From contig CAVQMO010000010.1 in NCBI GenBank assembly GCA_963713605.1, forward strand, positions 1,066,676 to 1,130,675: a DNA stretch of 64,000 nucleotides, read 5' to 3'. The translations under genes and the position numbers were made by a program. Shown here in pieces: positions 45,360-64,000 of the stretch (positions are counted from its first letter, which is position 1; each line of letters begins with the position of its first letter). The stretch comes from an uncultured Nitrososphaerales archaeon. Its GTDB lineage: Archaea; Thermoproteota; Nitrososphaeria; Nitrososphaerales; Nitrososphaeraceae. The notes beneath the pieces are model-generated. The model worked only from the letters and a program-made list of their open reading frames with translations, had not been told where the DNA came from and did no database searches.

Positions 45360-45449
45360 CTAATCATTACTCCTTATGACCAGCATGCACATTCTCATAG
45401 CATCAAGCAAGTCATCAAATGAAGTTGCATCCTTATCAAGCATACCTTC
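45360..45449 (-). repeat. Terminase-like 3' tail copy A
   Basis: EGMLDKDATSFDDLLDAMRMCML...*. Confidence 0.8.
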
Positions 45450-45879
45450 CTTTCGTACCTACTTCCTTTTCATAGCGCTCTTTTGCAGTCGGGCATTGGT
45501 ACTGATTGTAACTGTAGTATATTGCAACGACCAATTTTGATACTAAGACAACAACCGGTAATCTACCCTTACCTTACCTTCGTGTATCGTTCCTGATTAT
45601 CTGAATTCTGACATTCTACCTCATAGAGTCGTTCCTCATTATCTGAAATGAATCGAACATTCTTTTGACAACAGGTAGATAGGTGTCAAAATAACCGGGT
45701 TCTGCCTGATATTTTATTTCAAACATTTCATTTTCAAGAGGAGCAGCCACTTCTAGCCATTTTCGAGTCTCATTATTGACATATGAGTAATGGACGATCT
45801 GATAAGCAGGAATCCCGGAGAGAGTAGTATTGGATTGGTCAACTAATCACTTACTTTATGTTTCCGTTAAAGTATGACT

Positions 45880-48894: not shown

Positions 48895-48987
48895 TCAATG
48901 GCAAAATAACAAACTCATTCGAAACGCATCGAATAAATCATCCTGGCTAGTTGCTTCCTTGTCTAATGCACCTTCCCCATTTTCTAG
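48895..48987 (-). repeat. Terminase-like 3' tail copy B
   Basis: LENGEGALDKEATSQDDLFDAFRMSLLFCH*. Confidence 0.9.
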
Positions 48988-49098
48988 AGAAACATTATTA
49001 GAGAACTATAGAAGAATCCATTCTTACATAACTATAGAAGAATCTTATATAAATGATGTTTACGTTATAATAGTTTTACAGTGAGATGATATGAGACG

Positions 49099-49278
49099 AT
49101 GAGATGGGAATGTATTTACTGTAACAGCGTAATGGATAGCACAAACTTTACAGAATTCATAAAACAAAGTGACAACGACAGGAACAGCGTTCAACAAGCG
49201 AAAGTGCAATATCATACTTGGAGACCGCTGCCAGAGTCAGGCGACGAGGCTAGTGCCAGAACAGAAGCGCTAGTCTAA
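49099..49278 (+). CDS. Small CxxC protein, paralog of 60580 ORF
   Basis: MRWECIYCNSVMDSTNFTEFIKQSDND...VQYHTWR. Confidence 0.6.
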   Translation: MRWECIYCNSVMDSTNFTEFIKQSDNDRNSVQQAKVQYHTWRPLPESGDEASARTEALV

Positions 49279-49612
49279 AACCGTCGAACAAATCGTCATA
49301 TGAAGTAGCATCTTTATCTAGGGACCCTTCTCCTTTTTCAACTGCCGTACGTAATGCGGTAATTAACTTCGCATGCTTGGGATTAATTTCTACTTGGCCA
49401 TCATTGTACTCGAGCATCTGCTTACAATGGGCAAGCATCTTTTTATGTTCCTTGGAAAATGCTACCGGGATCACAAACATATTTTCCTCCAGGAATTTCA
49501 AGTCGTAAATTGATGGGTACTGTTTCTTCAAATAAGAACATACGCGTTCATAGTTTGTATCCTCATCCAATCTTTCCTTTAAAGCACGGATAAAGGATGG
49601 ATTAGCGCCGGA
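49250..49612 (-). pseudogene. Terminase large subunit-like C-terminal nuclease fragment (longest tail copy, C)
   Basis: GANPSFIRALKERL...IPVAF...KLITALRTAVEKGEGSLDKDATSYDDLFDGFRLAL, resembling the DxAxP...DDxxDAxR RNase H-type terminase motifs. Confidence 0.6.
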
Positions 49613-49614
49613 AA

Positions 49615-49683
49615 CAATACCAGAACGCTAAACTCATTCGAAACGCATCAAATAAATCATCGGTTGACGTTGCTTCCTTGTCT
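49615..49683 (-). repeat. Terminase-like 3' tail copy D
   Basis: DKEATSTDDLFDAFRMSLAFWY, abutting copy C. Confidence 0.9.
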
Positions 49684-50282: not shown

Positions 50283-50890
50283 TGGCAATCGTAAGAGAAA
50301 GCGCAAAGAATGACTATTCGCTTTCTCGGAACTCCATTAGCCACGATCGACCAATCTTAATACTTAACACACGTTATAAAGCCACCTCATACTATCTCCT
50401 TACCGAGTGGCCTTAATAACAAGGAGAGCCTATCAGATTCAGGGCCTTACTAGGGTTCACAAATACTCGCTAGAACAAATATTGTATTTCCTTCTAAGAA
50501 GGACGATCGGTGGGCATTGGTCGTGTCGTTGACAATAACAGGCTAGACTCATCTGCATATTCCTACATTACAAATAAATCAAAGACGCTAAAAAGTAGTG
50601 GAGCCGGTATAGGATAGAGACCCGCCAACCACTGACCGTCCATATGAAGTAATATCTATTACTGTACCTTGCAGAACGGATAACTTCTTCATATGAAACT
50701 GTTTATTGTAATGATGGTATCTCCATGTGATCCTTTCCTGACCGCTTTAAATCACTGGGTGTGGTTGGGCCAAGTTAACGAGTTTATGCCTAAATAGGTC
50801 AAGAGTTAAGTCCTAACTACTTTGATGACAAATCGACTAGGACGAGCAGAAGCGCATTTTAACTAACTAACTACTTGACTAACTAATCGA

Positions 50891-53617: not shown

Positions 53618-53688
53618 CTAGTGCCTAAATGCATCCACCAGGTCATCATATGACGTTGCTTCCTTGTCCAGGACGCCTTCTCCCCATT
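53618..53688 (-). repeat. Terminase-like 3' tail copy F
   Basis: GEGVLDKEATSYDDLVDAFRH* (internal deletion). Confidence 0.9.
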
Positions 53689-53842: not shown

Positions 53843-54466
53843 ATGACTGCTGAAAATGCTGCCACCGATTTGTTGCCATGGATTGTTGCCGGAATCACCG
53901 GGATAGGAGTAGTAGTTTCCTTTATTACATTTTGGTTTCAGCGGGAAAGATCTCATGAGACTGCTAAAGCAGAGAAACAAAGAGTTCTTCTCGCTAGATT
54001 AGCAGAAGCCTTTCGATTGTTATATGATGTAAGACATAGAGTGGCGCGAAAAGTTGTTTACGGTAATCCTGACCCTTCATCATTTGAAATCATTGGACTT
54101 AATAGGCCTACAGTTGAAGGAAATTATAGTTATGACGAACTGACTCGAATATGCAAAGAGATAGTGAAAAATGATTGCAACGAAATCGGCGTTCTAGCAC
54201 ATCATGGTCTTGTAGACGGAGATAAATTCATCGAAGAAGGCTTTTGGGTTATTCTGAAAGTCTGGGACCTCCTAAAGGATGACATAGTGGAAAGACGAAA
54301 AAGAGATTCATTAATGAAGTTATATATCCCTAAAAGTGCACAAAGGAGTCAAATGAACGTCCTGATGCCACTAAGGGACTCTCATCTGACTATGGTCTTC
54401 AGGTTCCTCCATATGGTTTTCAAGACCTTCATTTGGACTAGAGTATTCAGAAATACCGTCTGGTAA
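53843..54466 (+). CDS. Membrane-anchored DUF4760-like protein, C-terminus probably chimeric
   Basis: N-terminal TM; NDCNEIGVLAHHGLVD...W..LK..I.ERR pattern. Confidence 0.5.
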   Translation: MTAENAATDLLPWIVAGITGIGVVVSFITFWFQRERSHETAKAEKQRVLLARLAEAFRLLYDVRHRVARKVVYGNPDPSSFEIIGLNRPTVEGNYSYDELTRICKEIVKNDCNEIGVLAHHGLVDGDKFIEEGFWVILKVWDLLKDDIVERRKRDSLMKLYIPKSAQRSQMNVLMPLRDSHLTMVFRFLHMVFKTFIWTRVFRNTVW

Positions 54467-54589
54467 TAGGTCAAGGTGTGGGGGAAAATGTTCTGAACAA
54501 TAATAGTTAGTGCATTTTTTACATTGAGCGGTTGGCTTGTAATACCATACTCTTTTGGTAAAGAATTGCCCTAGATTCTGAGTACCCAA
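54371..54589 (-). CDS. Small Zn-finger-like protein fragment
   Basis: CKKCTNYYCSEHFPPH. Confidence 0.4.
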   Translation of the reverse strand: MGTQNLGQFFTKRVWYYKPTAQCKKCTNYYCSEHFPPHLDLLPDGISEYSSPNEGLENHMEEPEDHSQMRVP

Positions 54590-54701: not shown

Positions 54702-55349
54702 TTACTTTCCTTTATCTCCGATGATTTCCACGAATCTGCTCTCAGGACCAAATACGATAGTCAAAACCCTCTCCTGACTGTTTCCCTCAGACTGCTTGAA
54801 ACTATTAAAGATGTTGGGGCAATCTCCGATACATATTCCACTCTGTTCACCACCTATCCTGTCACCATCCATCACAACAGTATATGGCTTGTCTTTATTG
54901 TCAGCAGCCTTGGAGTCTATGAAGTTTCTAGGTAATTGAACCTCTAAGGCACCTCCTTCTACGCCGCTTTGAGGATTAAGAGCAAGATATAATGCATTTC
55001 TATCAGGATTTGCTAGCATTCCAACGAGTGAACCTCCGATGATGTTATAACTAATAGGATTCGGTTGACCATCAGCCATTACGTCATACTTATTTGCATA
55101 GCCCGGGGCTGCGAGTGTTTTGAGCACGTCAATATCGACCTGATCAATAGCACTTGCATTTTCTATTTGCCCAGTAGCATTCTGTCCAGTAGCATTCTGT
55201 CCAGTAGCATTCTGCCCGTTTACCAATTCGAAAGGCATTACCGAAGTTCCGATGAAAATAACGCTGGCCAAAGTCAATGACAAAGCCACAAGTGGAAAAG
55301 ATATCTTCATCCTATTCTTGGATTTTACAACTAAACTACTTTCTGTCAT
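54702..55349 (-). CDS. Secreted protein with NATGQ repeats
   Basis: Signal peptide; NATGQ x3; LEVQLPRNFIDSK...VMDG...RVLTIVF...EIIG thaumarchaeal surface domain. Confidence 0.75.
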   Translation of the reverse strand: MTESSLVVKSKNRMKISFPLVALSLTLASVIFIGTSVMPFELVNGQNATGQNATGQNATGQIENASAIDQVDIDVLKTLAAPGYANKYDVMADGQPNPISYNIIGGSLVGMLANPDRNALYLALNPQSGVEGGALEVQLPRNFIDSKAADNKDKPYTVVMDGDRIGGEQSGICIGDCPNIFNSFKQSEGNSQERVLTIVFGPESRFVEIIGDKGK

Positions 55350-55426
55350 TAGAACAACTAACCTGAAAGATATTTATTAATCTTCGAGAACATAATTACA
55401 GCATGTTCTTACATCATCGTCATATA

Positions 55427-55543
55427 TCAATGCCATACTGCAAGGATAGTCTAAAACTATCGAATAGGTCGTCATGACTAGTCGTATCTTTGTCTAATGT
55501 GCCTTCACCATTCTACCGCAGTCCTTAACGCAGTGATTAACTG
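55427..55543 (-). repeat. Terminase-like 3' tail copy G
   Basis: LITALRTAVE/NGEGTLDKDTTSHDDLFDSFRLSLQ..WH*. Confidence 0.9.
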
Positions 55544-55821
55544 CCAAACTAATTAAACAGATCTTCATGTTCCTGGTGGGTGGCAACGACACTGACATGT
55601 CGCAGTTCCAGATTCAACAGGGGCCACTCCGGAACATTCAATATGCTTTTCGTCTCTGCATGCCTGAGATAATACCTCTTCAGTCAACGAATTATCCATA
55701 GGAGGCAATACATATAAGACATTCCAGAAAAGCAGTTCGGGCCAATCAGTATGTTGGTCGCTTCAATAATCTAAATATGGAATGATCCAAGTTATAAGAC
55801 CTGTTCGAAATACATGAGTTA

Positions 55822-56868
55822 ATGACTACCCTTATGGTTGGAATTCACAATTCTGTTCTCGTGCTTGATTCCTCAGATGATTTTAAGATTAGGGAGATTT
55901 CCAAAGGTGGTAATCCACAAGGTAAAGAGTCAGAATCTCCAGGGCATAAGCCATCGTGCATAGCATTTGATCCTCAAAACTCCCATCGTGCATATTGGGG
56001 TATTTTCAATAATGGCCTGTGGAAAACAGATGATCGTGGCCAGTCCTGGGATAACATTGGAAAAGATAGTTTCTCCAGCCCACGAATCATGTCCGTTGCG
56101 GTTAGTTCTCTGAATAGTGGAAATAAATCTAACAAAGTATATGCAGGAACCGAACCAAGTGCACTCTATGTTTCAAATGATGGAGGAGATAGTTGGGAAA
56201 GAATGAAAGCATTAAATGATTTACCCTCGTCAAAAACATGGAGCTTTCCACCGAGACCATATACTCATCACGTTCGTTGGATTGAACCAGATGCAACCAA
56301 TCCTGATTATCTATTTGTCGCTATAGAAGCAGGAGCCCTGGTGCAAAGCCGTGATGGAGGTAAAACTTGGATGGACAGAGTTAAAGGAGGCCCGTATGAC
56401 ACACATACTTTAGCTACTCATCCAAAAGCGCCCAAGCGCCTCTACTCCTCTGCAGGCGACGGGTACTATGAAAGTCTTGATTATGGAGAATCATGGAATA
56501 GACCCATGGAAGGATTGAAACATAGTTACCTTACTGGGATAGCAGTTGATTCGGGTAATCCTGATGCTGTGATTGTCTCAGCCTCTGATGGCCCTTTCAA
56601 GTCATTCTCTCCCAACAGCGCTGAAACATTTCTATACAGAAAAGATGATGAAGATGGCAAAAAATGGAAGGTTGTTTCAGACGGTGTTCCTCACCCAAGT
56701 GGAACTACTATGTCGATCTTGGCATCAAATCAAAAGGTTCAAGGAGAGTTTTATGCCGTCAATAATCATGGTGTCTTTATTTCGAACGATTTGGGTGAAT
56801 CATGGAGGGAACTTACTAATGAATGGCCCAACGAAAGTACTCCTTTGGCGCTTGCTGTTTCCGAATAA
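55822..56868 (+). CDS. BNR/Asp-box beta-propeller protein
   Basis: Asp-boxes TDDRGQSW, SNDGGDSW, SRDGGKTW, SLDYGESW, SNDLGESW; WSFPPRP.THHVRWI. Confidence 0.9.
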   Translation: MTTLMVGIHNSVLVLDSSDDFKIREISKGGNPQGKESESPGHKPSCIAFDPQNSHRAYWGIFNNGLWKTDDRGQSWDNIGKDSFSSPRIMSVAVSSLNSGNKSNKVYAGTEPSALYVSNDGGDSWERMKALNDLPSSKTWSFPPRPYTHHVRWIEPDATNPDYLFVAIEAGALVQSRDGGKTWMDRVKGGPYDTHTLATHPKAPKRLYSSAGDGYYESLDYGESWNRPMEGLKHSYLTGIAVDSGNPDAVIVSASDGPFKSFSPNSAETFLYRKDDEDGKKWKVVSDGVPHPSGTTMSILASNQKVQGEFYAVNNHGVFISNDLGESWRELTNEWPNESTPLALAVSE

Positions 56869-56898
56869 TGGTAAAGGGACATTACTAAATAATTTACA

Positions 56899-57009
56899 CA
56901 TGCCAGAACTGCAGAGACATTACGGAATGTTGCGACTAACTTTGTATGTTTAGGATTGGTTGTCGAAATGCATCAAACAAGTCATCATGGCTAGTGCTTC
57001 CTTGTCCAA
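56899..57009 (-). repeat. Terminase-like 3' tail copy H (two pieces)
   Basis: 56963-57009 LDKEA.SHDDLFDAFR; 56899-56928 FR.MSLQFWH. Confidence 0.85.
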
Positions 57010-57068
57010 TATGAAGTCAAGGTAAGGTGGAGAAAACTAATAGTCTAGTCTTTTGATTAAGGAGAATA

Positions 57069-57468
57069 TTGGATAATCAAGAAATACGTGCGATTCTGGA
57101 TCGTTATTGGGAAGCCACGTTAGCTCATGATTTAGAGAGGGTGCATGAGTTTTATCATGATGATGTTGTAGTCGAATTTCCACAATCTGGCGAACGCATT
57201 CGGGGCAAGCAAAACATATACGATCTCAGAGCACACTACCCCACTGAGGCTACTTATAAAATCCTGAGAGTTCGTGGAGATGGAAATCTCTGGACTACTG
57301 AAGTGACTGTCAACTATGAGAATGACAATGAACGCCCAGTCAATGGGGTAGCCATCATGGAGTTTCGAAATGATAAAATCGCACATGAAACACTCTATTT
57401 TGCATATCCATTTGAACCACCTGAGTGGAAGATCTCAATGGGTCGAGATTGTCAAGGATAACAAGTAA
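57069..57468 (+). CDS. SnoaL/NTF2-like protein
   Basis: YHDDVVVEFPQSGERIRG...EFRNDKIAHETLYFA.PFEPPEW; probable terminal frameshift. Confidence 0.85.
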
Positions 57469-57480
57469 ATGACTTGGTAA

Positions 57481-57507
57481 TCAGTGCCAGAACTGCAGAG
57501 ACAATCT
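57481..57507 (-). repeat. Terminase-like 3' tail copy I
   Basis: RLSLQFWH*. Confidence 0.8.
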
Positions 57508-57529
57508 GGCGGCGTCATAGGCTTCTTTG

Positions 57530-57645
57530 ATATAAACTATTGATGACAAATCAGATTAAAATACCAATCATATTCTCCAGAACCCAGATAAATTATTTAG
57601 CAGGACCGCCCGGAGTGACAGGAGTGACAGGTGCTCAAGGAGACC
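57530..57645 (+). pseudogene. Collagen gene remnant (promoter fused to a Gly-X-Y fragment)
   Basis: Third copy of the collagen upstream element directly followed by AGPPGVTGVTGAQG. Confidence 0.6.
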
Positions 57646-58258
57646 ATCCCTTCAGTGATTTATATGCCTCAGGGGTAATGAAGGTAAAGTATTGTTCCTC
57701 GTCCCCGGCATATACTATTAGTTTGGCGGCCAGGATATCATCCTCAGTATCATTACACCAAGGAATTACGTGTTTCCATTTAAGGTAATCCCATGCACCA
57801 ATTCTGATCCCTGAAGAGACCATTGTAAAGACTATGGGTTTAATTCTTCTGTCAGGGTATTCAATAATGATTTTTATTTCCTCTAGACTTGGCGCCCTGT
57901 CATTGGCGGCTTTTCCCGAATGGGGCAAACCGCGCGATATCTTCTTCCAATTCAATACGATGTCATTCATTTCACAGAATAATTTGGTTGCCCTATTGTA
58001 ATTTGGGATGGTACATTCTGCTATCTCGCCTCTTTTGGCTACAAATGCCATAAGACTTTCTTCACACCACTTAAGATCCTTGCTTGCCGTCAGATAGAAT
58101 TGTTCGGCCTGTTCAACTAAAGAGCCTTTCAACCCCAAGTAATCAAGAAATATTTTGAATCTGCGTGGATACTGTCGCTTAGATTCTGGTGCCTTTAGTG
58201 CGTACGTGAAAACAGTCATCGGGTCTTTTCTTGGTCTTTCTATGGGTCCTCTAAGCAA
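57635..58258 (-). mobile_element. Tyrosine recombinase/integrase, C-terminally truncated
   Basis: ALKAPESKRQYPRR, DRAPSLEEI, MVSSGIRIGAW (box I Arg), YFTFITPEA; no HxxR or catalytic Tyr. Confidence 0.85.
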
Positions 58259-58304
58259 ACTTCCTATTCTTTTATGGCAGTGGGCATAATTAAAGGGACA
58301 AGAT

Positions 58305-58332
58305 TGGCGCGGGCTCGGAGGGATTCGGAACC
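58305..58332 (-). other. tRNA 3'-end remnant (T arm + acceptor strand), probable att site
   Basis: GGTTC(C)GAATCCCTCCGAGCCCG, like the 3' end of archaeal tRNA-Arg, about 50 bp upstream of the integrase. Confidence 0.6.
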
Positions 58333-58834
58333 TTTGAGTATGCGGGTTCGTTTGCTAGTTAGAAGTGCTGTAAGTATTATGCAGACTCAGGATTTTCTAA
58401 TATCGTTAGCGATACCATTCGTGAAGGTTTAAAACTGGCCAACTGGCAACAACACACAAACCCACGTAATGAACCCAGAAAAAAATATTGGGTTTGTCTA
58501 ACTTGACCTACAGCTTTTTCCAGCCTCTAATATTCTGTCGATTGCTGCCCTGTCTAGTCTACCAGCCTTCCATAACTCTGATAGTAGTTGGTTTAGAAGC
58601 CTTGTTAGATTAGAGTTCTCGGGAATGTTTACTTTTCCTTCTGCCGCGCTCATACCTGTCTGTCTCAACCTTTACTTAGTTGTCGTTGCTTTAAGCATGT
58701 TTTGCAAGATATTTTCAAGGTGTGATTCGGAAGTGTCCTATTACCCAATACTGCGTATACATTGTTTACCATGGTGGGTTTATTATGCGCTGGAAATAGT
58801 AAAGGAACTATCTTCTTACGTTACCTAATAAAAA

Positions 58835-59110
58835 CTACTTTTTCTTATTATAATACGACCGTAGATCTTTCATGACTATCTTAAACCTATTCTCTAAACT
58901 ATCTAGTCTTTGACCCATTCTTTTATCGTCTTGGTGAGTATCGATAAGGTATCTGTATGCACTATCAATTGCTTTAAGGTAAGCGTATACATATGACTCT
59001 ACTGGTATATCCCTTGCCTGTACTTTCACGCCCTTCACGCTCCACTAATTCTTTGTATACCATTTCACCTTTGTTAATTATAATCTCTTCCAACTCTTTT
59101 TCATTCGACA
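58835..59110 (-). CDS. Hypothetical protein (frameshifted)
   Basis: MSNEKELEEIIINKGE.../KGVKVQARDIPVESYVYAYLKAID... Confidence 0.4.
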
Positions 59111-59238
59111 TTTTATGTCTAGATAAATTAGACACAGATATAAAATTACGGGGTTTCAGTAGAAGAAGAATAATAGGTGGTGAGATGTAAAACCATGCCC
59201 CAGATAGACCCCCACTCACTGCCAGGACAACTTCTTTT

Positions 59239-59340
59239 CTATCTTCGATTTACAGCATGGCAACGACACTCGCATGTAAAGGTATCGCTCCATTTACACG
59301 ATCTATGATTGTTTGTTAGGCATCCCAATGATAATTGCAT
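59239..59340 (-). CDS. 33-aa Cys/His-rich microprotein, copy 1
   Basis: MQLSLGCLTNNHRSCKWSDTFTCECRCHAVNRR*; paralog at 61089-61190. Confidence 0.75.
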   Translation of the reverse strand: MQLSLGCLTNNHRSCKWSDTFTCECRCHAVNRR

Positions 59341-59413
59341 TATTTACTTGATTTAATAATAGTCGGAGATCCTAAAAAATAGTGTATTACGATTGTTAAG
59401 GGGTTTGGGTAAT

Positions 59414-59500
59414 TTAATCCATAAATAATGCTAAATATCGATGTCCTCTCTGTGTGATTCGATACCGAGAGGGCCCCGTGAATTCATTTTCAGACAACAT
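59414..59500 (-). pseudogene. Winged-helix gene 3' tail, copy 1
   Basis: SENEFTGPSRYRITQRGHRYLALFMD*. Confidence 0.6.
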
Positions 59501-59536
59501 CTCTGCATACTATGGATCTGTCTTCCTGACAAACTG

Positions 59537-59875
59537 TTATGACGGATCATCAACTAATAGAGAATAGTTCTGTATCTTCAATAGGTCTGATACTGACGAT
59601 TCAAGTATCCTGAACTGAAAAGGGGCTTTCTCTCCTGCAGGTATAGTATCAGGAGTAACATACGTTATGTCGGTTCCTATAACATTTCCTTCTGCGTCGT
59701 ATAGTGTCGCCGATATCTCTACTATACCTACATCCCCGTTTCCATTGTTTATAACCTCTCCTGCTATATGATATGAAGGCGTCAACTCATTATTGTCTAG
59801 CCACGATTCTGTTTTGCCTACTATTTCTACTTGTGCTAGCACTTGTGTATTTAGAATCCCTAATATTCCTACCAT
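59537..59875 (-). CDS. FxLYD-domain protein
   Basis: HIAGEVINNG...ISATLYDAEGNVIG...IPAGEKAPF. Confidence 0.85.
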   Translation of the reverse strand: MVGILGILNTQVLAQVEIVGKTESWLDNNELTPSYHIAGEVINNGNGDVGIVEISATLYDAEGNVIGTDITYVTPDTIPAGEKAPFQFRILESSVSDLLKIQNYSLLVDDPS

Positions 59876-60225
59876 GGTAAAAAAGATACCAATGATAACA
59901 CTATATCATATATTTGTCCACCTACAAATCGGCTTAAGTCTATCTTTGTAGGAGCCAGAATATTGTAATATTGTTGTATACCAATTGACCTAGACTCGTC
60001 CTTTTGAATTAGCGCTGACACTATATGTTGGGGAGGTGGAGGTGAATATGGTTGCTGGACTTGCATCTGCATAGTAGGCTGCTGGGGCTGCTGCTGTTGA
60101 GTCCCCGTCTGGGCATTGAAGTTGGGACGTAGAGACGAAGATAACAAAGGCAACAGAAGAAAGCATACTATTAGCACCGCTAATTTCCTGGATATTGGTC
60201 CATTAATTATCACCCCTAACTGCAA
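59869..60225 (-). CDS. Hypothetical secreted protein fragment
   Basis: Signal-like segment then Q/P-rich linker. Confidence 0.4.
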   Translation of the reverse strand: MQLGVIINGPISRKLAVLIVCFLLLPLLSSSLRPNFNAQTGTQQQQPQQPTMQMQVQQPYSPPPPQHIVSALIQKDESRSIGIQQYYNILAPTKIDLSRFVGGQIYDIVLSLVSFLPW

Positions 60226-60404
60226 ACTATAAGCAATCTAGAGAGAAGTATTATGTAAACATTCAGTAAAGAGATTACATAGGCCTTACTAACTCCTTTT
60301 GACGATGGTTCGATTCATTCCTGAGGAATCAATCAATTCAATTGTAGATTCGATAATGGTAGCACCCTGTCCTTCAATAATTTGTCTTCATTTGGATCTT
60401 GTAT

Positions 60405-60475
60405 GGGTTATTACCTATCGCTGCTGGTCTGTGGATATTTCTAGCATAATTTCACCGTAGGCCTGTAATAGCCCT
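60405..60475 (+). repeat. Imperfect hairpin element, copy 1 (copy 2 at 60887-60961)
   Basis: GGGTTATTAC...GTAATAGCCC outer stem with inner GGTCTGTGG/CCGTAGGCC stem. Confidence 0.65.
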
Positions 60476-60579
60476 TCTATAATTAACCGATTAATTACTC
60501 CCCTATAGAAGTCAAAGGGGGAGACTTACAGAACTATGTGTGAACCTGTTATAAGCAATGACAAATAAGATGAGGCCGC

Positions 60580-60843
60580 ATGAGAGAGGAAATGAAGTGG
60601 GTTTGTGTGGATTGTAACAAAGTATTGGACAAAACCAACTTCGTCGATTTCATAAAGGAAAGTGACAACGATAAATATAGCAATCAAGAAGCGGTAGGTA
60701 CAGTATCACCACTGGAGATTTCTGCTGCCACCAACCTCATCGTCGTCATCATCATCAGAGGAGGAACACGAAATGGTAGACGTTCCTTGGCCCAAGCGGA
60801 CCATAATCTAAGGCCAGCCAGGCTTACTTTCTCTAGTCTCTAA
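60580..60843 (+). CDS. Small CxxC protein, paralog of 49099 ORF (frameshift near 60695)
   Basis: MKWVCVDCNKVLDKTNFVDFIKESDND...VQYHHWR. Confidence 0.6.
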   Translation: MREEMKWVCVDCNKVLDKTNFVDFIKESDNDKYSNQEAVGTVSPLEISAATNLIVVIIIRGGTRNGRRSLAQADHNLRPARLTFSSL

Positions 60844-60886
60844 CGACGGGAGAGGCTTATTTAGTTTAATGCACAACTGTCTATAC

Positions 60887-60961
60887 GGGGTTATTACTAT
60901 CCACCCTGGCCTGCGGATATTTCCTAGTACAGAATTTCACCGTCAGGTCGGTAATAACTCC
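60887..60961 (+). repeat. Imperfect hairpin element, copy 2
   Basis: GGGGTTATTAC...GTAATAACTCC outer stem with inner GGCCTGCGG/CCGTCAGGTC stem. Confidence 0.65.
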
Positions 60962-61088
60962 TTCAAACTTGAAGATAAACGTTCTGTTCGAATATCAAAG
61001 TATTAATCTGTCAATGATTAGCAAAACATTCCCTCAATGATCAGTTATTCCAGAAATTGAGCCGTTGTCTTCATTATCTTTGTTATTT

Positions 61089-61190
61089 CTATCGTCGATT
61101 TTCAGCGTGGCAGCGACATTCGCAAGTAATGTTATCGCTCCACTTACATGCCCTATGATTGTTTGTCAAGCACCCTAATGATAATTGCAT
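61089..61190 (-). CDS. 33-aa Cys/His-rich microprotein, copy 2
   Basis: MQLSLGCLTNNHRACKWSDNITCECRCHAENRR*. Confidence 0.75.
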   Translation of the reverse strand: MQLSLGCLTNNHRACKWSDNITCECRCHAENRR

Positions 61191-61275
61191 TATTTACTTA
61201 TCATAATAATAGTCGGAGATCCTAACTAGTGTATTACGATTGTAACGGGGTCGGGTAAAAATAAGAGGGTTATGG

Positions 61276-61539
61276 CTAGGTTGGACAATCTCCTAACGCT
61301 TTCTCGGCACCTTCGTTGGCTTGTTGTATTCCTCTGTCACTTGCATGAGTTGTAGTATCAGGCTCGGTCTTTGCATCCTGCTTTCCTTCTAAATCAAGCA
61401 TTTTATCACATGCCCTATCCGAACGTGAGTCTTCGCCAGAACTTGCGAATGATATTGCTATTGTGGAAGACTCTAGTACAGCCATCACAGAGGCAGATAT
61501 CGCCCCTAACATTAATCCCATGAGTATGGTCTTTTTCAT
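61276..61539 (-). CDS. Small secreted protein
   Basis: MKKTILMG signal peptide; two Cys; upstream TATTTATA box. Confidence 0.65.
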   Translation of the reverse strand: MKKTILMGLMLGAISASVMAVLESSTIAISFASSGEDSRSDRACDKMLDLEGKQDAKTEPDTTTHASDRGIQQANEGAEKALGDCPT

Positions 61540-61622
61540 TGCAGGGCCAGGCTATAGCGACGAAGTATAAATAGGTACGGCAGAAGAATCATTGCCCGAA
61601 CGTCATCGATAAAGGAAATTAC

Positions 61623-61706
61623 TCATTCGGTAAATAAGGACAAATACCGTTGTCCTCTCTGAGTTATTCGATACCGATATGGACCTGTTATATGATCTTC
61701 AGAACG
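61623..61706 (-). pseudogene. Winged-helix gene 3' tail, copy 2
   Basis: SEDHITGPYRYRITQRGQRYLSLFTE*. Confidence 0.6.
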
Positions 61707-62482
61707 CGACCGACTCAGTAATCTGTGAGCGATCTCAACCGCAGTATCGGAAGTGACGAATTCTGTAGTGACAATCCAAGTCATTTTGCATGTGATGGAA
61801 AGGTAGGAAACAGTCAAGATGATAACGAAGATGACCCTGATTATAGAACAGAGAGTGATCTAACTGATGCAGAAAAAGAAGAGAAAAAGACAGATACAAA
61901 AGGAGCCTGTTAGGGCGACGACTATGAAGGATTCTTAGTGGGAGAACTGCCAGAAGTTAGGTGATACAATTTATGATTCCTCGTAAGTCACCTACTTCTC
62001 CTCCTTTATTCGTTGGATATCAGTAACACTGGGTGCTATCTCTGCCTCTACTGCTTCACGTCTTTTTACCTCTAGCGTTCTCAAGATATCGTGTATTGCC
62101 TCTGCGGTAAGCCTGTGACTTTCCGCTTCGCCTATTTCACCGTTATGGACATAGCCCTCAGCCAATGTTGCTTGTCTATAGGCTCAAGTGATAGGTGGCC
62201 CATCGTCAACTCCATATCCGAACGGTCGATGCCTCTCAGGAGGTTGGATAAATTACTAAGTCTCTTTTCTCTCTTATCTTCCGACTGGTTAGACATAATA
62301 ACCATTATTCATAAAAATATTTAGATATATTCAATTTCACGGGGTATCCTCGTAGACAGAACATAAATACGTAAAAGACTACCGAAGAGATAGTTTGTCA
62401 ATCAATCTTTCATTTCTTGCATCATACGGTAACAGGGTCATTATTGACCTCGCAATAACACAAATGACCTAAATCTTTGATT

Positions 62483-62551
62483 CTAATGCCAGAACAACAA
62501 TGACATCCTGAATGCGTCCATAAGGTCGCTTCTTTGTCAAGCGATCCCTCC
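62483..62551 (-). repeat. Terminase-like 3' tail copy J
   Basis: EGSLDKEAT/LMDAFRMSLLFWH* (short internal deletion). Confidence 0.9.
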
Positions 62552-62587
62552 CGCAGGAAATCCTTAAGTAAAGAGGCCCATTATCAT

Positions 62588-63865
62588 ATGCATTTGTCAT
62601 TAAAGATAATAGCAGTAGTTCTTTCAGTTTATTCAATATCATTCTTATTTTGTGGTGTAGCCTTCACAGTTCATGCTCAATCGGACTTGCAGACAACAAA
62701 ATATAGAAATATGGTTATAGATTTGGGTAATGGTTTAAAGACTAACGCTAGGCTAAATCTTCCATCCAATGGGGACGGTCCCTTCCCAGGTGTTCTTCTT
62801 GTACCTGGCTCTGGAAAGACGGATATGAATGAAACTGCAGGCTACGTTCACATAGATAACGAAACAGGCTCAATTATTTATCCGCCTGGTAGACCGTTCT
62901 TTGAAATAGCCGAATATCTTTCAGAAAGAGGTTTTGCAGTATTGCAGTATGACAAGAGAGGTATTGGCGCGAATCTGACAGTTCTGGATAGCAATGTATG
63001 GGGGAATGTAACTGTTGATGAACTAAAGCAAGATGCAGAGAAGGCCTTAAATGTTCTTATACAGCAACCAGAGGTGGATGCTAGCCATGTAACTCTAGTT
63101 GGACATAGCGAGGGTACAACGATTGTCCCAAGAGTTGCAATCGACAATCCAGATAAAGTAGATAATATTGTACTGATGGGGACCTTGGCCCAAAACTTGC
63201 GTGAAATAGGATACTTCCAAGGTGTTACGAACCCAGTACACTACGCTCAACAGGTTCTAGACCATAATCACAATGGATTGATATCAGTACAAGAAGCGTC
63301 TGAGAATCCTATTTTTAATACTATTTTTGGGAACCTTACTCTATTTCTTGCTCAAAATATAACTGCTACAAATGGAACATCCGAACAACTAAATCCCCGA
63401 TATAATACGAATAATGATACTTTCATAAGTATTAATGAAGAACTCAAACCTAGGATAATAAATTTTATCAAATCATTTTCATCTCAGGTTGTAACACCAG
63501 GTGAAAAGTGCGATCCCCGTAACACCTGTCCCATTTGGCTTAAAACGCATTACCCTACACCTACTATAGATATCATAAGTAAAGTTCCATCAGATACATC
63601 TATTCTAATACAACAAGGGAAGAATGATTCACAAACCCCAATACAGCAAGCACTTCTTTTACAGCAGGAACTGACAGAAGTAAGACATCCTGATCATACA
63701 TTGATAACATACTCTGACCTCGGCCATGCTTTCTATCCTTCATCTCAATGGGTAACTGCTTTTGGCCCAATGGAACAAAAGGTTCTGGAAGATCTTTTTG
63801 GCTGGCTTTCAGATCCAGTCAGAGACTTTAAGAAGTTAACCATTTTATCTTCGCAAATGCCTTAG
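62588..63865 (+). CDS. Secreted alpha/beta hydrolase
   Basis: Signal peptide; VPGSG..D, YDKRG, GHSEG nucleophile, QGKNDSQ, LGH. Confidence 0.9.
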   Translation: MHLSLKIIAVVLSVYSISFLFCGVAFTVHAQSDLQTTKYRNMVIDLGNGLKTNARLNLPSNGDGPFPGVLLVPGSGKTDMNETAGYVHIDNETGSIIYPPGRPFFEIAEYLSERGFAVLQYDKRGIGANLTVLDSNVWGNVTVDELKQDAEKALNVLIQQPEVDASHVTLVGHSEGTTIVPRVAIDNPDKVDNIVLMGTLAQNLREIGYFQGVTNPVHYAQQVLDHNHNGLISVQEASENPIFNTIFGNLTLFLAQNITATNGTSEQLNPRYNTNNDTFISINEELKPRIINFIKSFSSQVVTPGEKCDPRNTCPIWLKTHYPTPTIDIISKVPSDTSILIQQGKNDSQTPIQQALLLQQELTEVRHPDHTLITYSDLGHAFYPSSQWVTAFGPMEQKVLEDLFGWLSDPVRDFKKLTILSSQMP

Positions 63866-63913
63866 GTTGTTAGCAGATTCCTCATCTGTAACGCGAATGA
63901 ATCGATAGCCAGA

Positions 63914-63987
63914 TTAATGCCAGAACTGCAGTGAAAGCCTGAAGTCCTCAGTGACTCACCATACTGCAAAGACAATCTGAATGTATC
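63914..63987 (-). repeat. Terminase-like 3' tail copies K and L
   Basis: 63914-63943 FRLSLQFWH*; 63958-63987 DTFRLSLQY. Confidence 0.8.
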
Positions 63988-64000
63988 CCTCAGTTTATCA

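Follow-up and report, generated by a model that had tools for sequence, protein, structure and literature searches.

The window analysed here is a 64,000-nucleotide stretch of DNA from an uncultured archaeon of the family Nitrososphaeraceae, order Nitrososphaerales (assembly GCA_963713605.1, contig CAVQMO010000010.1, positions 1,066,676 to 1,130,675); it is the terminal 64 kb of this contig, designated C10, in a genome of 4.09 Mb and 15 contigs. The window contains two minus-strand copies of an open reading frame (ORF) for a microprotein of 33 amino acids (aa) rich in cysteine and histidine, located at 59239..59340 (copy 1) and 61089..61190 (copy 2). Both ORFs are almost certainly real genes, judging by the substitutions between them. 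The module they encode is, on sequence evidence, an uncatalogued and wide family of small Cys/His proteins with stand-alone, fused and tandem forms. The best overall explanation, given a probability of about 55%, is that each copy is a stand-alone gene for this module, which would form a two-zinc scaffold and serve as an accessory of mobile elements.

Each ORF has 102 nt including the stop codon and starts with ATG. The candidate ligands of copy 1 are C7, H12, C15, C23, C25, C27 and H28; copy 2 has the same seven, all five cysteines and two histidines being identical. The repeat holding the copies aligns over 177 nt at 84% identity. Fourteen codons differ, ten synonymously and four non-synonymously, and the synonymous/non-synonymous counts in the remaining five frames are 1/13, 8/7, 0/14, 2/12 and 1/14; four of these five non-coding frames are nearly all non-synonymous, the 8/7 frame being the exception. 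The NG86 comparison, with 12 synonymous versus 4 non-synonymous changes and about 20 synonymous sites, gives a synonymous divergence (dS) of 1.15, a non-synonymous divergence (dN) of 0.055 and a dN/dS of 0.05 (Fisher p = 2.5e-7); under a null keeping transitions and transversions, P is 5e-5. The six intact close copies compared (one from another genome, G001, and five from the present one) form 15 pairs, not independent of one another, each with a dN/dS of 0.04–0.21. The window copies are protein-coding by the synonymous excess in one frame and the intact start and stop codons. An earlier note, made from the letters of the window, had described two intact 102-nt ORFs in a ~175-bp repeat, with four residue differences amid a synonymous excess, purifying selection, all Cys and His kept and about 70 bp of conserved upstream DNA; its positions and translations are correct, and each of these features was recovered in the alignments and in the dN/dS analysis it had proposed. 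It had also called the ORFs unannotated, and neither exact protein occurs in a collection of 15 billion proteins, in which a 71-aa relative (P0158) is present. A search of window positions 55000-64000 against Rfam gave 0 matches at E ≤ 1.

The conserved upstream DNA covers 59341..59412 for copy 1 and 61191..61258 for copy 2 (both on the minus strand). Sixty of 68 aligned nucleotides are identical, whereas some 20 synonymous sites of the ORFs carry 12 changes, so this DNA is constrained as well. In copy 1, the motif TTTTTAGG occupies 59371-59378, some 38 nt upstream of the ATG; the T-run of copy 2 is three bases shorter. In group C, the short LSLxC type to which the window copies belong, homology starts near ACTAGTTTTTAGG, about 30–40 nt before the start codon, and the same 30–40 nt stretch recurs with 83–96% identity in four further genomes of this genus. 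The conserved DNA is probably a promoter variant with a very short leader; alternatively, it may be a recombination site. The TATA boxes of this genome peak at −40 to −26 and have a sequence other than TTTTTAGG, which was therefore rejected as the general TATA box. A fixed order of terminase end, TTTTTAGG and microprotein was rejected as a rule as well: among terminase-like ends the count was 2 of 16, and among the remaining motif hits 12 of 56, with a background of 10.5%. A sigma-70 scan, which does not apply here, gave fewer sites than shuffled sequences did.

The regular expression C-x3-5-H-x2-C-x2-20-C-x-C-x-C-H has 17 matches in the six-frame translation of the genome and 0 in the reversed and two shuffled genomes. 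An iterated hidden Markov model (HMM) detects 31 loci, the top reversed decoy having an E-value of 0.16. The window copies do not form a local duplication; they are two of these 31 loci, and neither is the other's nearest relative. The copy at C10:641346 stands closer to copy 2 (dS 0.30) than copy 1 does, indicating that the window copies arrived or diverged separately. Nineteen loci have seven ligands and a start codon, one has the ligands without a standard start and 11 are incomplete. Assembly errors account for little of this: five frameshifts in 15.3 kb of conserved genes (about 0.33 per kb) predict only about one break, and ligand substitutions and an in-frame deletion among these loci are real decay. 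Caution is needed with broken genes in this assembly, the EF-1alpha gene (G000:C10 600129-601140) being itself split by a frameshift. The incomplete loci thus point to a birth and death of copies. Broken homologues and a missing synonymous bias had been named beforehand as signs against the gene; the former occur, yet the low dN/dS of all 15 intact pairs argues against a non-coding repeat.

The module has the consensus S-x2-C-x4-H-x2-C-x(3-27)-C-x-C-x-C-H and a length of 25–45 residues. With a profile built from 19 sequences (E ≤ 0.001), 149 of the 150 other Nitrososphaeraceae genomes match, a tally that includes the unpublished genome G298, which contributes to no other count (148 of 149 without it), as do 103 of 103 good-quality family genomes, the present one counted. 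Most family genomes have 1–5 matches, with up to 27 within the same genus; when 200 genomes were sampled evenly across the phylum, one matched. A second, less sensitive profile matched 21 genomes in a 120-genome sample of the order: 7 of 13 in the same family, 8 of 9 in family f4, 4 of 13 in f7 and 1 of 14 in each of f13 and f15. A syntenic relative shows 73% identity. In four f4 loci (L241, L242, L245 and L246), the module forms the C-terminus of a short ORF lying syntenically between two conserved, putatively metabolic genes.

Among 1.84 billion protein representatives, 276 hits were obtained at E ≤ 0.001, and 147 of the best 150 of them contain the motif, in 186 instances. The C-to-H spacing is four in all instances and the loop has 3–27 residues, a constancy that is partly built in, the profile itself having chosen the hits; 143 instances have Ser three positions before the first Cys and 180 have His after the last. 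At least two module copies are present in 18 proteins, one of which has up to 11–12. Proteins P0001, P0002 and P0034 (195–621 aa) consist largely of 5–12 tandem copies and belong to no Pfam family. Since a hydrophobic N-terminal stretch occurs in only five of the best 150 representatives, most members are apparently cytoplasmic. Across the family little is conserved beyond the ligands, while the loop is conserved inside each group.

No family at the curated level corresponds to the module in Pfam, NCBIfam or PADLOC, the PADLOC scan covering 86 members. A PDB sequence search returned only a bacteriocin (E 0.22) and a pollen allergen (E 0.095), which were taken as chance matches, and the ESM Atlas offered only ‘hypothetical’ clusters (0.79–0.90). 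Longer fused forms were not found by a word search, a weak method, and five bacterial profile hits were dropped as they contain no motif. A description of the motif or family was not found among the papers listed in literature searches, with subscription journals mostly outside the search coverage; the papers listed for spellings of the motif concern C1 domains, RAG-like transposons and other topics.

The module probably represents a metal-binding fold, as its ligand pattern suggests. Two tetrahedral sites need eight positions and seven ligands are available; two Zn2+ ions sharing one bridging Cys are therefore proposed. In a PDB fold search, the model of the 33-aa protein had no match with Z ≥ 2 and that of a 50-aa relative reached Z 2.3 at best; Foldseek against the PDB gave a best E-value of 7.4 with a very small query. 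For queries so small, the absence of a PDB fold match is no proof of a new fold.

The module also occurs in actinobacterial phages. JEGGS gp64 (36 aa) and LittleTokyo gp29 (44 aa), both from Arthrobacter phages, are stand-alone proteins with the same seven-ligand pattern. EastWest gp45, a further Arthrobacter phage protein whose gene comes after RusA, shares 50% identity with a window ORF over 30 residues (E 0.02). In Mudcat-type phages, the 36-aa stand-alone gene lies downstream of a primase-polymerase; this gene (e.g., L253:2501-2602) is annotated in JEGGS and unannotated in Xenomorph, Dynamite and BenitoAntonio. Phage members are located in replication, recombination or integrase regions. 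The label ‘recombination directionality factor’ at phage hits belongs to the adjacent gene and was discarded. IMG/VR contigs contain 29–31-aa ORFs with the module, 21 of 119 pattern hits passing a complexity filter. The IMG/VR tally of at least 119 in-frame versus two out-of-frame hits was unusable, as 79 were low-complexity repeats and 19 had stops.

Profile–profile scores between the phage and archaeal groups are 83–96%, and an HMM built from phage members alone detects the window ORFs with E ~3e-6, the phage set having been largely picked for the same spacing. Foldseek matches of the 50-aa model to viral proteins, including those of Arthrobacter phages Maja, Judy and Cheesy, were not significant (E 0.4–1.5); the same three phages also turn up in the sequence search. 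Some phage members are covered by phrog_15767, phrog_33920, phrog_37854 and phrog_8957, function-less PHROGs with the same seven-ligand pattern. Protein P0089, which shares the ligand pattern with its phage relatives, matches phrog_15767 at 4.8e-13. The two window ORFs had no PHROG match at E ≤ 0.1, phrog_15767 included; in the PHROG scan, a third window member (55565..55708) scored 0.0059 and 4 of 86 aligned members matched. The phrog_15767 profile found nothing in this genome at E ≤ 0.01, the control being silent as well.

Genomic contexts were counted at loci of other genomes, picked by E-value, with about 1.5 kb on each side. Group A members (55–95 aa, with a GxWxGLG hairpin) have an integrase nearby in 14 of 15 loci, a divergent gene that belongs to no known family in 10 and a primase-polymerase in five; where the full order is visible, it runs integrase, the divergent gene convergent with it, module and primase. 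Core groups have an integrase or terminase nearby in 0 of 17 loci. Their members are syntenic, some next to EF-1alpha and a mannose-6-phosphate-isomerase-like cupin, others in further constant positions. In the present genome, terminase DNA occurs within 5 kb of 16 of the 31 loci (15.5% expected) and integrase DNA near 10 (8.7% expected); 19 have one or the other within 5 kb, versus 20.7% of random points. The identity of the terminase is based on phrog_2 matches (E 4e-15 and 6e-16). A second Cys/His-rich ORF is found no more than 5 kb from 12 of the 31 loci, and no more than 60 nt from several of them. In a scan of 108 neighbouring ORFs of at least 105 aa from 38 loci (E ≤ 1e-5), many had no family. 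The assignment of the microprotein to an element family, made in the earlier note, is retained for the window type, which occurs among terminase and integrase relics; the module itself ranges far wider, over core, integrative-element and phage genes.

In the proposed mechanism, the conserved upstream DNA would drive an almost leaderless mRNA. In the cytoplasm, the product would bind two Zn2+ ions through its seven ligands, one Cys acting as a bridge (Zn2Cys5His2), and this metal core would be a scaffold that presents the subfamily-conserved loop and the ends to a protein or nucleic-acid partner. Binding to a partner, rather than bulk chelation, is the probable function; the scaffold–loop reading is favoured because the loop is conserved within the group, with 22 of 26 non-ligand residues identical between copies 1 and 2 despite dS > 1. 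The window type would be an accessory gene of terminase- or integrase-bearing mobile elements, spread by repeated element insertion and recombination, with some copies retained and others decaying; the window copies would have been kept after their elements decayed. A role in element control is a reasonable guess with somewhat less than an even chance.

Several results weigh against this explanation. The AlphaFold models, which are metal-free, are compact but of modest quality: the predicted local distance difference test score (pLDDT) is 72 and the predicted template modelling score (pTM) 0.36 for the 33-aa protein, and 78 and 0.52 for the 50-aa relative. The spacing constancy is partly a product of selection by profile, and the terminase/integrase enrichment is partly circular, the queries having been drawn from neighbours. 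Elsewhere in the genus, group C has a terminase relic in only 4 of 17 loci and an integrase in 0 of 17, and the core syntenic members show that the module works outside elements too. Eleven of the 31 loci lack a ligand, are frameshifted or are truncated. The variable charge of the window members (predicted isoelectric points 8.8, 8.4 and 4.7, copy 1 having 8.8) makes one shared DNA-binding role unlikely.

The main rival is a metallothionein-like buffer, in which the peptide would sequester Zn, Cu(I) or Cd, for storage or to relieve toxicity, and many copies would add capacity. Ammonia-oxidising archaea rely heavily on copper enzymes, and a buffer would suit tiny stand-alone genes in which Cys and His make up 7 of 33 residues with a C-x-C-x-C run, as well as the arrays of up to 12 modules and the 19 intact paralogues. 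Pfam hits of 86 members (E ≤ 0.05), however, include no metallothionein family, and the 108 scanned neighbours of at least 105 aa, many of them without a family, include no metal transporter or metal-sensing regulator (E ≤ 1e-5). Conservation extends to non-ligand residues, and the placement in phage early regions and beside integrases would be left unexplained. Buffering is considered unlikely, though ahead of the other rivals. A protein of genetic conflict, such as a small anti-defence factor, an antitoxin or an inhibitor of a host protein with the loop as its targeting part, is a weaker candidate. Members are tiny, diverge fast and occur on phages and integrative elements, often with the second small Cys/His gene directly downstream, and their copies undergo apparent birth and death; PADLOC, however, gave no hit among 86 members, and the single-copy syntenic members by EF-1alpha and the mannose-6-phosphate isomerase-like cupin are retained across genomes.

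Five closely spaced cysteines might instead serve a redox function or hold another cofactor, as a thiol–disulfide switch or an Fe–S cluster in place of zinc. This is improbable: zinc would better explain why both histidines are conserved and keep a constant register relative to the cysteines, and structural disulfides are unlikely since most members have no export signals. The window copies might, finally, be silent relics, on which selection acted in the past in the donor element, or encode a ribosomally made peptide precursor for a modifying enzyme. Broken genes surround them and incomplete loci are frequent in the genome, but both copies keep start, stop, ligands and constrained upstream DNA amid fragmented neighbours, and no radical-SAM or other peptide-modifying family was detected among the 108 neighbours; we regard this as very improbable.

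The third, divergent member (55565..55708, minus strand) has 47 aa when read from a TTG codon (start uncertain), with seven ligands and an isoelectric point of 4.7, and runs directly into a 3′ relic of a terminase large subunit gene (55435..55596, minus strand), longer relatives of which match phrog_2. A relic copy at 50457..50558 (minus strand) has lost its 3′ half and keeps C-x4-H-x2-C; a TTTTTAG-type motif stands in its customary upstream position. Directly downstream of copy 1 is a gene of no known family (58835..59219, minus strand), present at five loci of the genome and frameshift-split here. About 0.9 kb from copy 1, an integrase-like fragment (57635..58354, minus strand) clusters with the integrase-like ORFs of the genome; it draws no Pfam hit and matches an unnamed PHROG only weakly, and its relative at locus L069 matches phrog_1 (integrase). 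An ORF-end fragment with a YRITQRG motif (59414..59500, minus strand) is multi-copy and also occurs upstream of the C10:641346 copy; a second such fragment (61623..61817, minus strand) lies upstream of copy 2, separated from it by an 87-aa ORF (61276-61539). Locus L020:1070-1402 (G000:C10, ~640.9–641.2 kb) joins an integrase-like N-terminus to a YRITQRG C-terminus as a recombined mosaic. The second Cys/His-rich ORF (cluster CL1), which sits immediately behind the microprotein at several loci elsewhere, is present in truncated form at 54371..54589 (minus strand). The CL1 family has 12 loci (including L020:1560-1889 and L099:10981-11235) and eight candidate ligands, with no Pfam or PHROG hit; its ligand spacing is what we take to be treble-clef-like.

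Terminase large subunit DNA forms 85 scattered fragments in the genome. Those in the window are at 45381-45521, 48898-49682, 53624-53683 and 55435-55596, with tips near 56911, 57495 and 63928. Seventy-two sites match a motif for the last codons of the terminase gene, many of them reading FRLSLQFWH-stop; the DNA upstream of them is often unrelated, as if the 3′ tip behaved like a recombination junction. Among the neighbours scanned, no capsid or portal gene is obvious near the putative TerS–TerL pairs of loci L095 and L096, which possibly represent a capsid-less element. Conserved housekeeping genes of the window stop near 38 kb; ~38000-64000 is a variable island reaching the contig end and containing an Ala/Gly-rich repeat gene (39–40.7 kb), collagen-like genes (51–53.6 kb), a BNR-repeat protein, a SnoaL-like protein and a multi-copy alpha/beta hydrolase. 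The microprotein region itself is a mosaic of fragments.

A broader and doubtful proposal is that an undescribed binuclear zinc mini-fold common to soil ammonia-oxidising archaea and actinobacterial phages acts as a small interaction scaffold controlling mobile elements, that it was taken up by core genomes more than once and that it reached about 30 copies here through a capsid-less terminase element of this genus. In this proposal, its gene would be the first of an operon that diverges from a presumed regulator and leads to the primase, a position at which satellites place Cro-, AlpA- or Xis-type genes. Soil Nitrososphaeraceae are major nitrifiers. The family, present in nearly all of their genomes examined, has no Pfam or NCBIfam entry, and its 33-aa copies go uncalled. 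With only 33 residues, the peptide and its probable new zinc-cluster fold would be within reach of synthesis and nuclear magnetic resonance, and the link to many ‘hypothetical’ actinophage genes is testable in laboratory Arthrobacter hosts.

Bacterial metallothioneins, such as SmtA/BmtA and MymT, are likewise small, cytoplasmic and Cys-rich, with His and C-x-C motifs. Compared with them, the module has fewer Cys, a fixed spacing and conserved non-ligand residues, and lacks a Pfam match. The C(P)XCG zinc-finger micro-proteins of Haloferax, e.g., HVO_0758 with two C(P)XCG motifs, are also archaeal, shorter than 70 aa, dependent on cysteines for folding and represented by many paralogues per genome, according to PMC10716476; they use four Cys for one zinc, whereas the module has seven candidate ligands, and the window ORFs contain no C(P)XCG motif. 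The Zn2Cys5His2 clusters of RAG1 and PCAF_N/GCN5, as given in PMC8586995, likewise combine five Cys with two His, which suffices for two Zn with one bridging Cys. The linear order in PCAF_N differs (C107 C113 C115 C142 C145 H147 H151), and both clusters are parts of large eukaryotic proteins without a sequence match to the module, and without a fold match above Z 2.3 in searches with very small queries; the resemblance is best described as analogy, not homology. Thaumarchaeal cryptic integrated elements, described in PMC6563490 as lacking a signature gene, resemble the group A loci in their integrase, divergent gene and primase-polymerase, and the TerS–TerL element NitKor-E1 resembles the terminase loci in having terminase genes with no capsid genes seen nearby; the terms ‘zinc finger’ and ‘Cys’ do not occur in the main text of that paper. 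The window copies belong to a shorter group, distinct from the GxWxGLG type, and it is the GxWxGLG group that is a candidate signature for thaumarchaeal integrative elements, a marker for archaeal elements said to have none.

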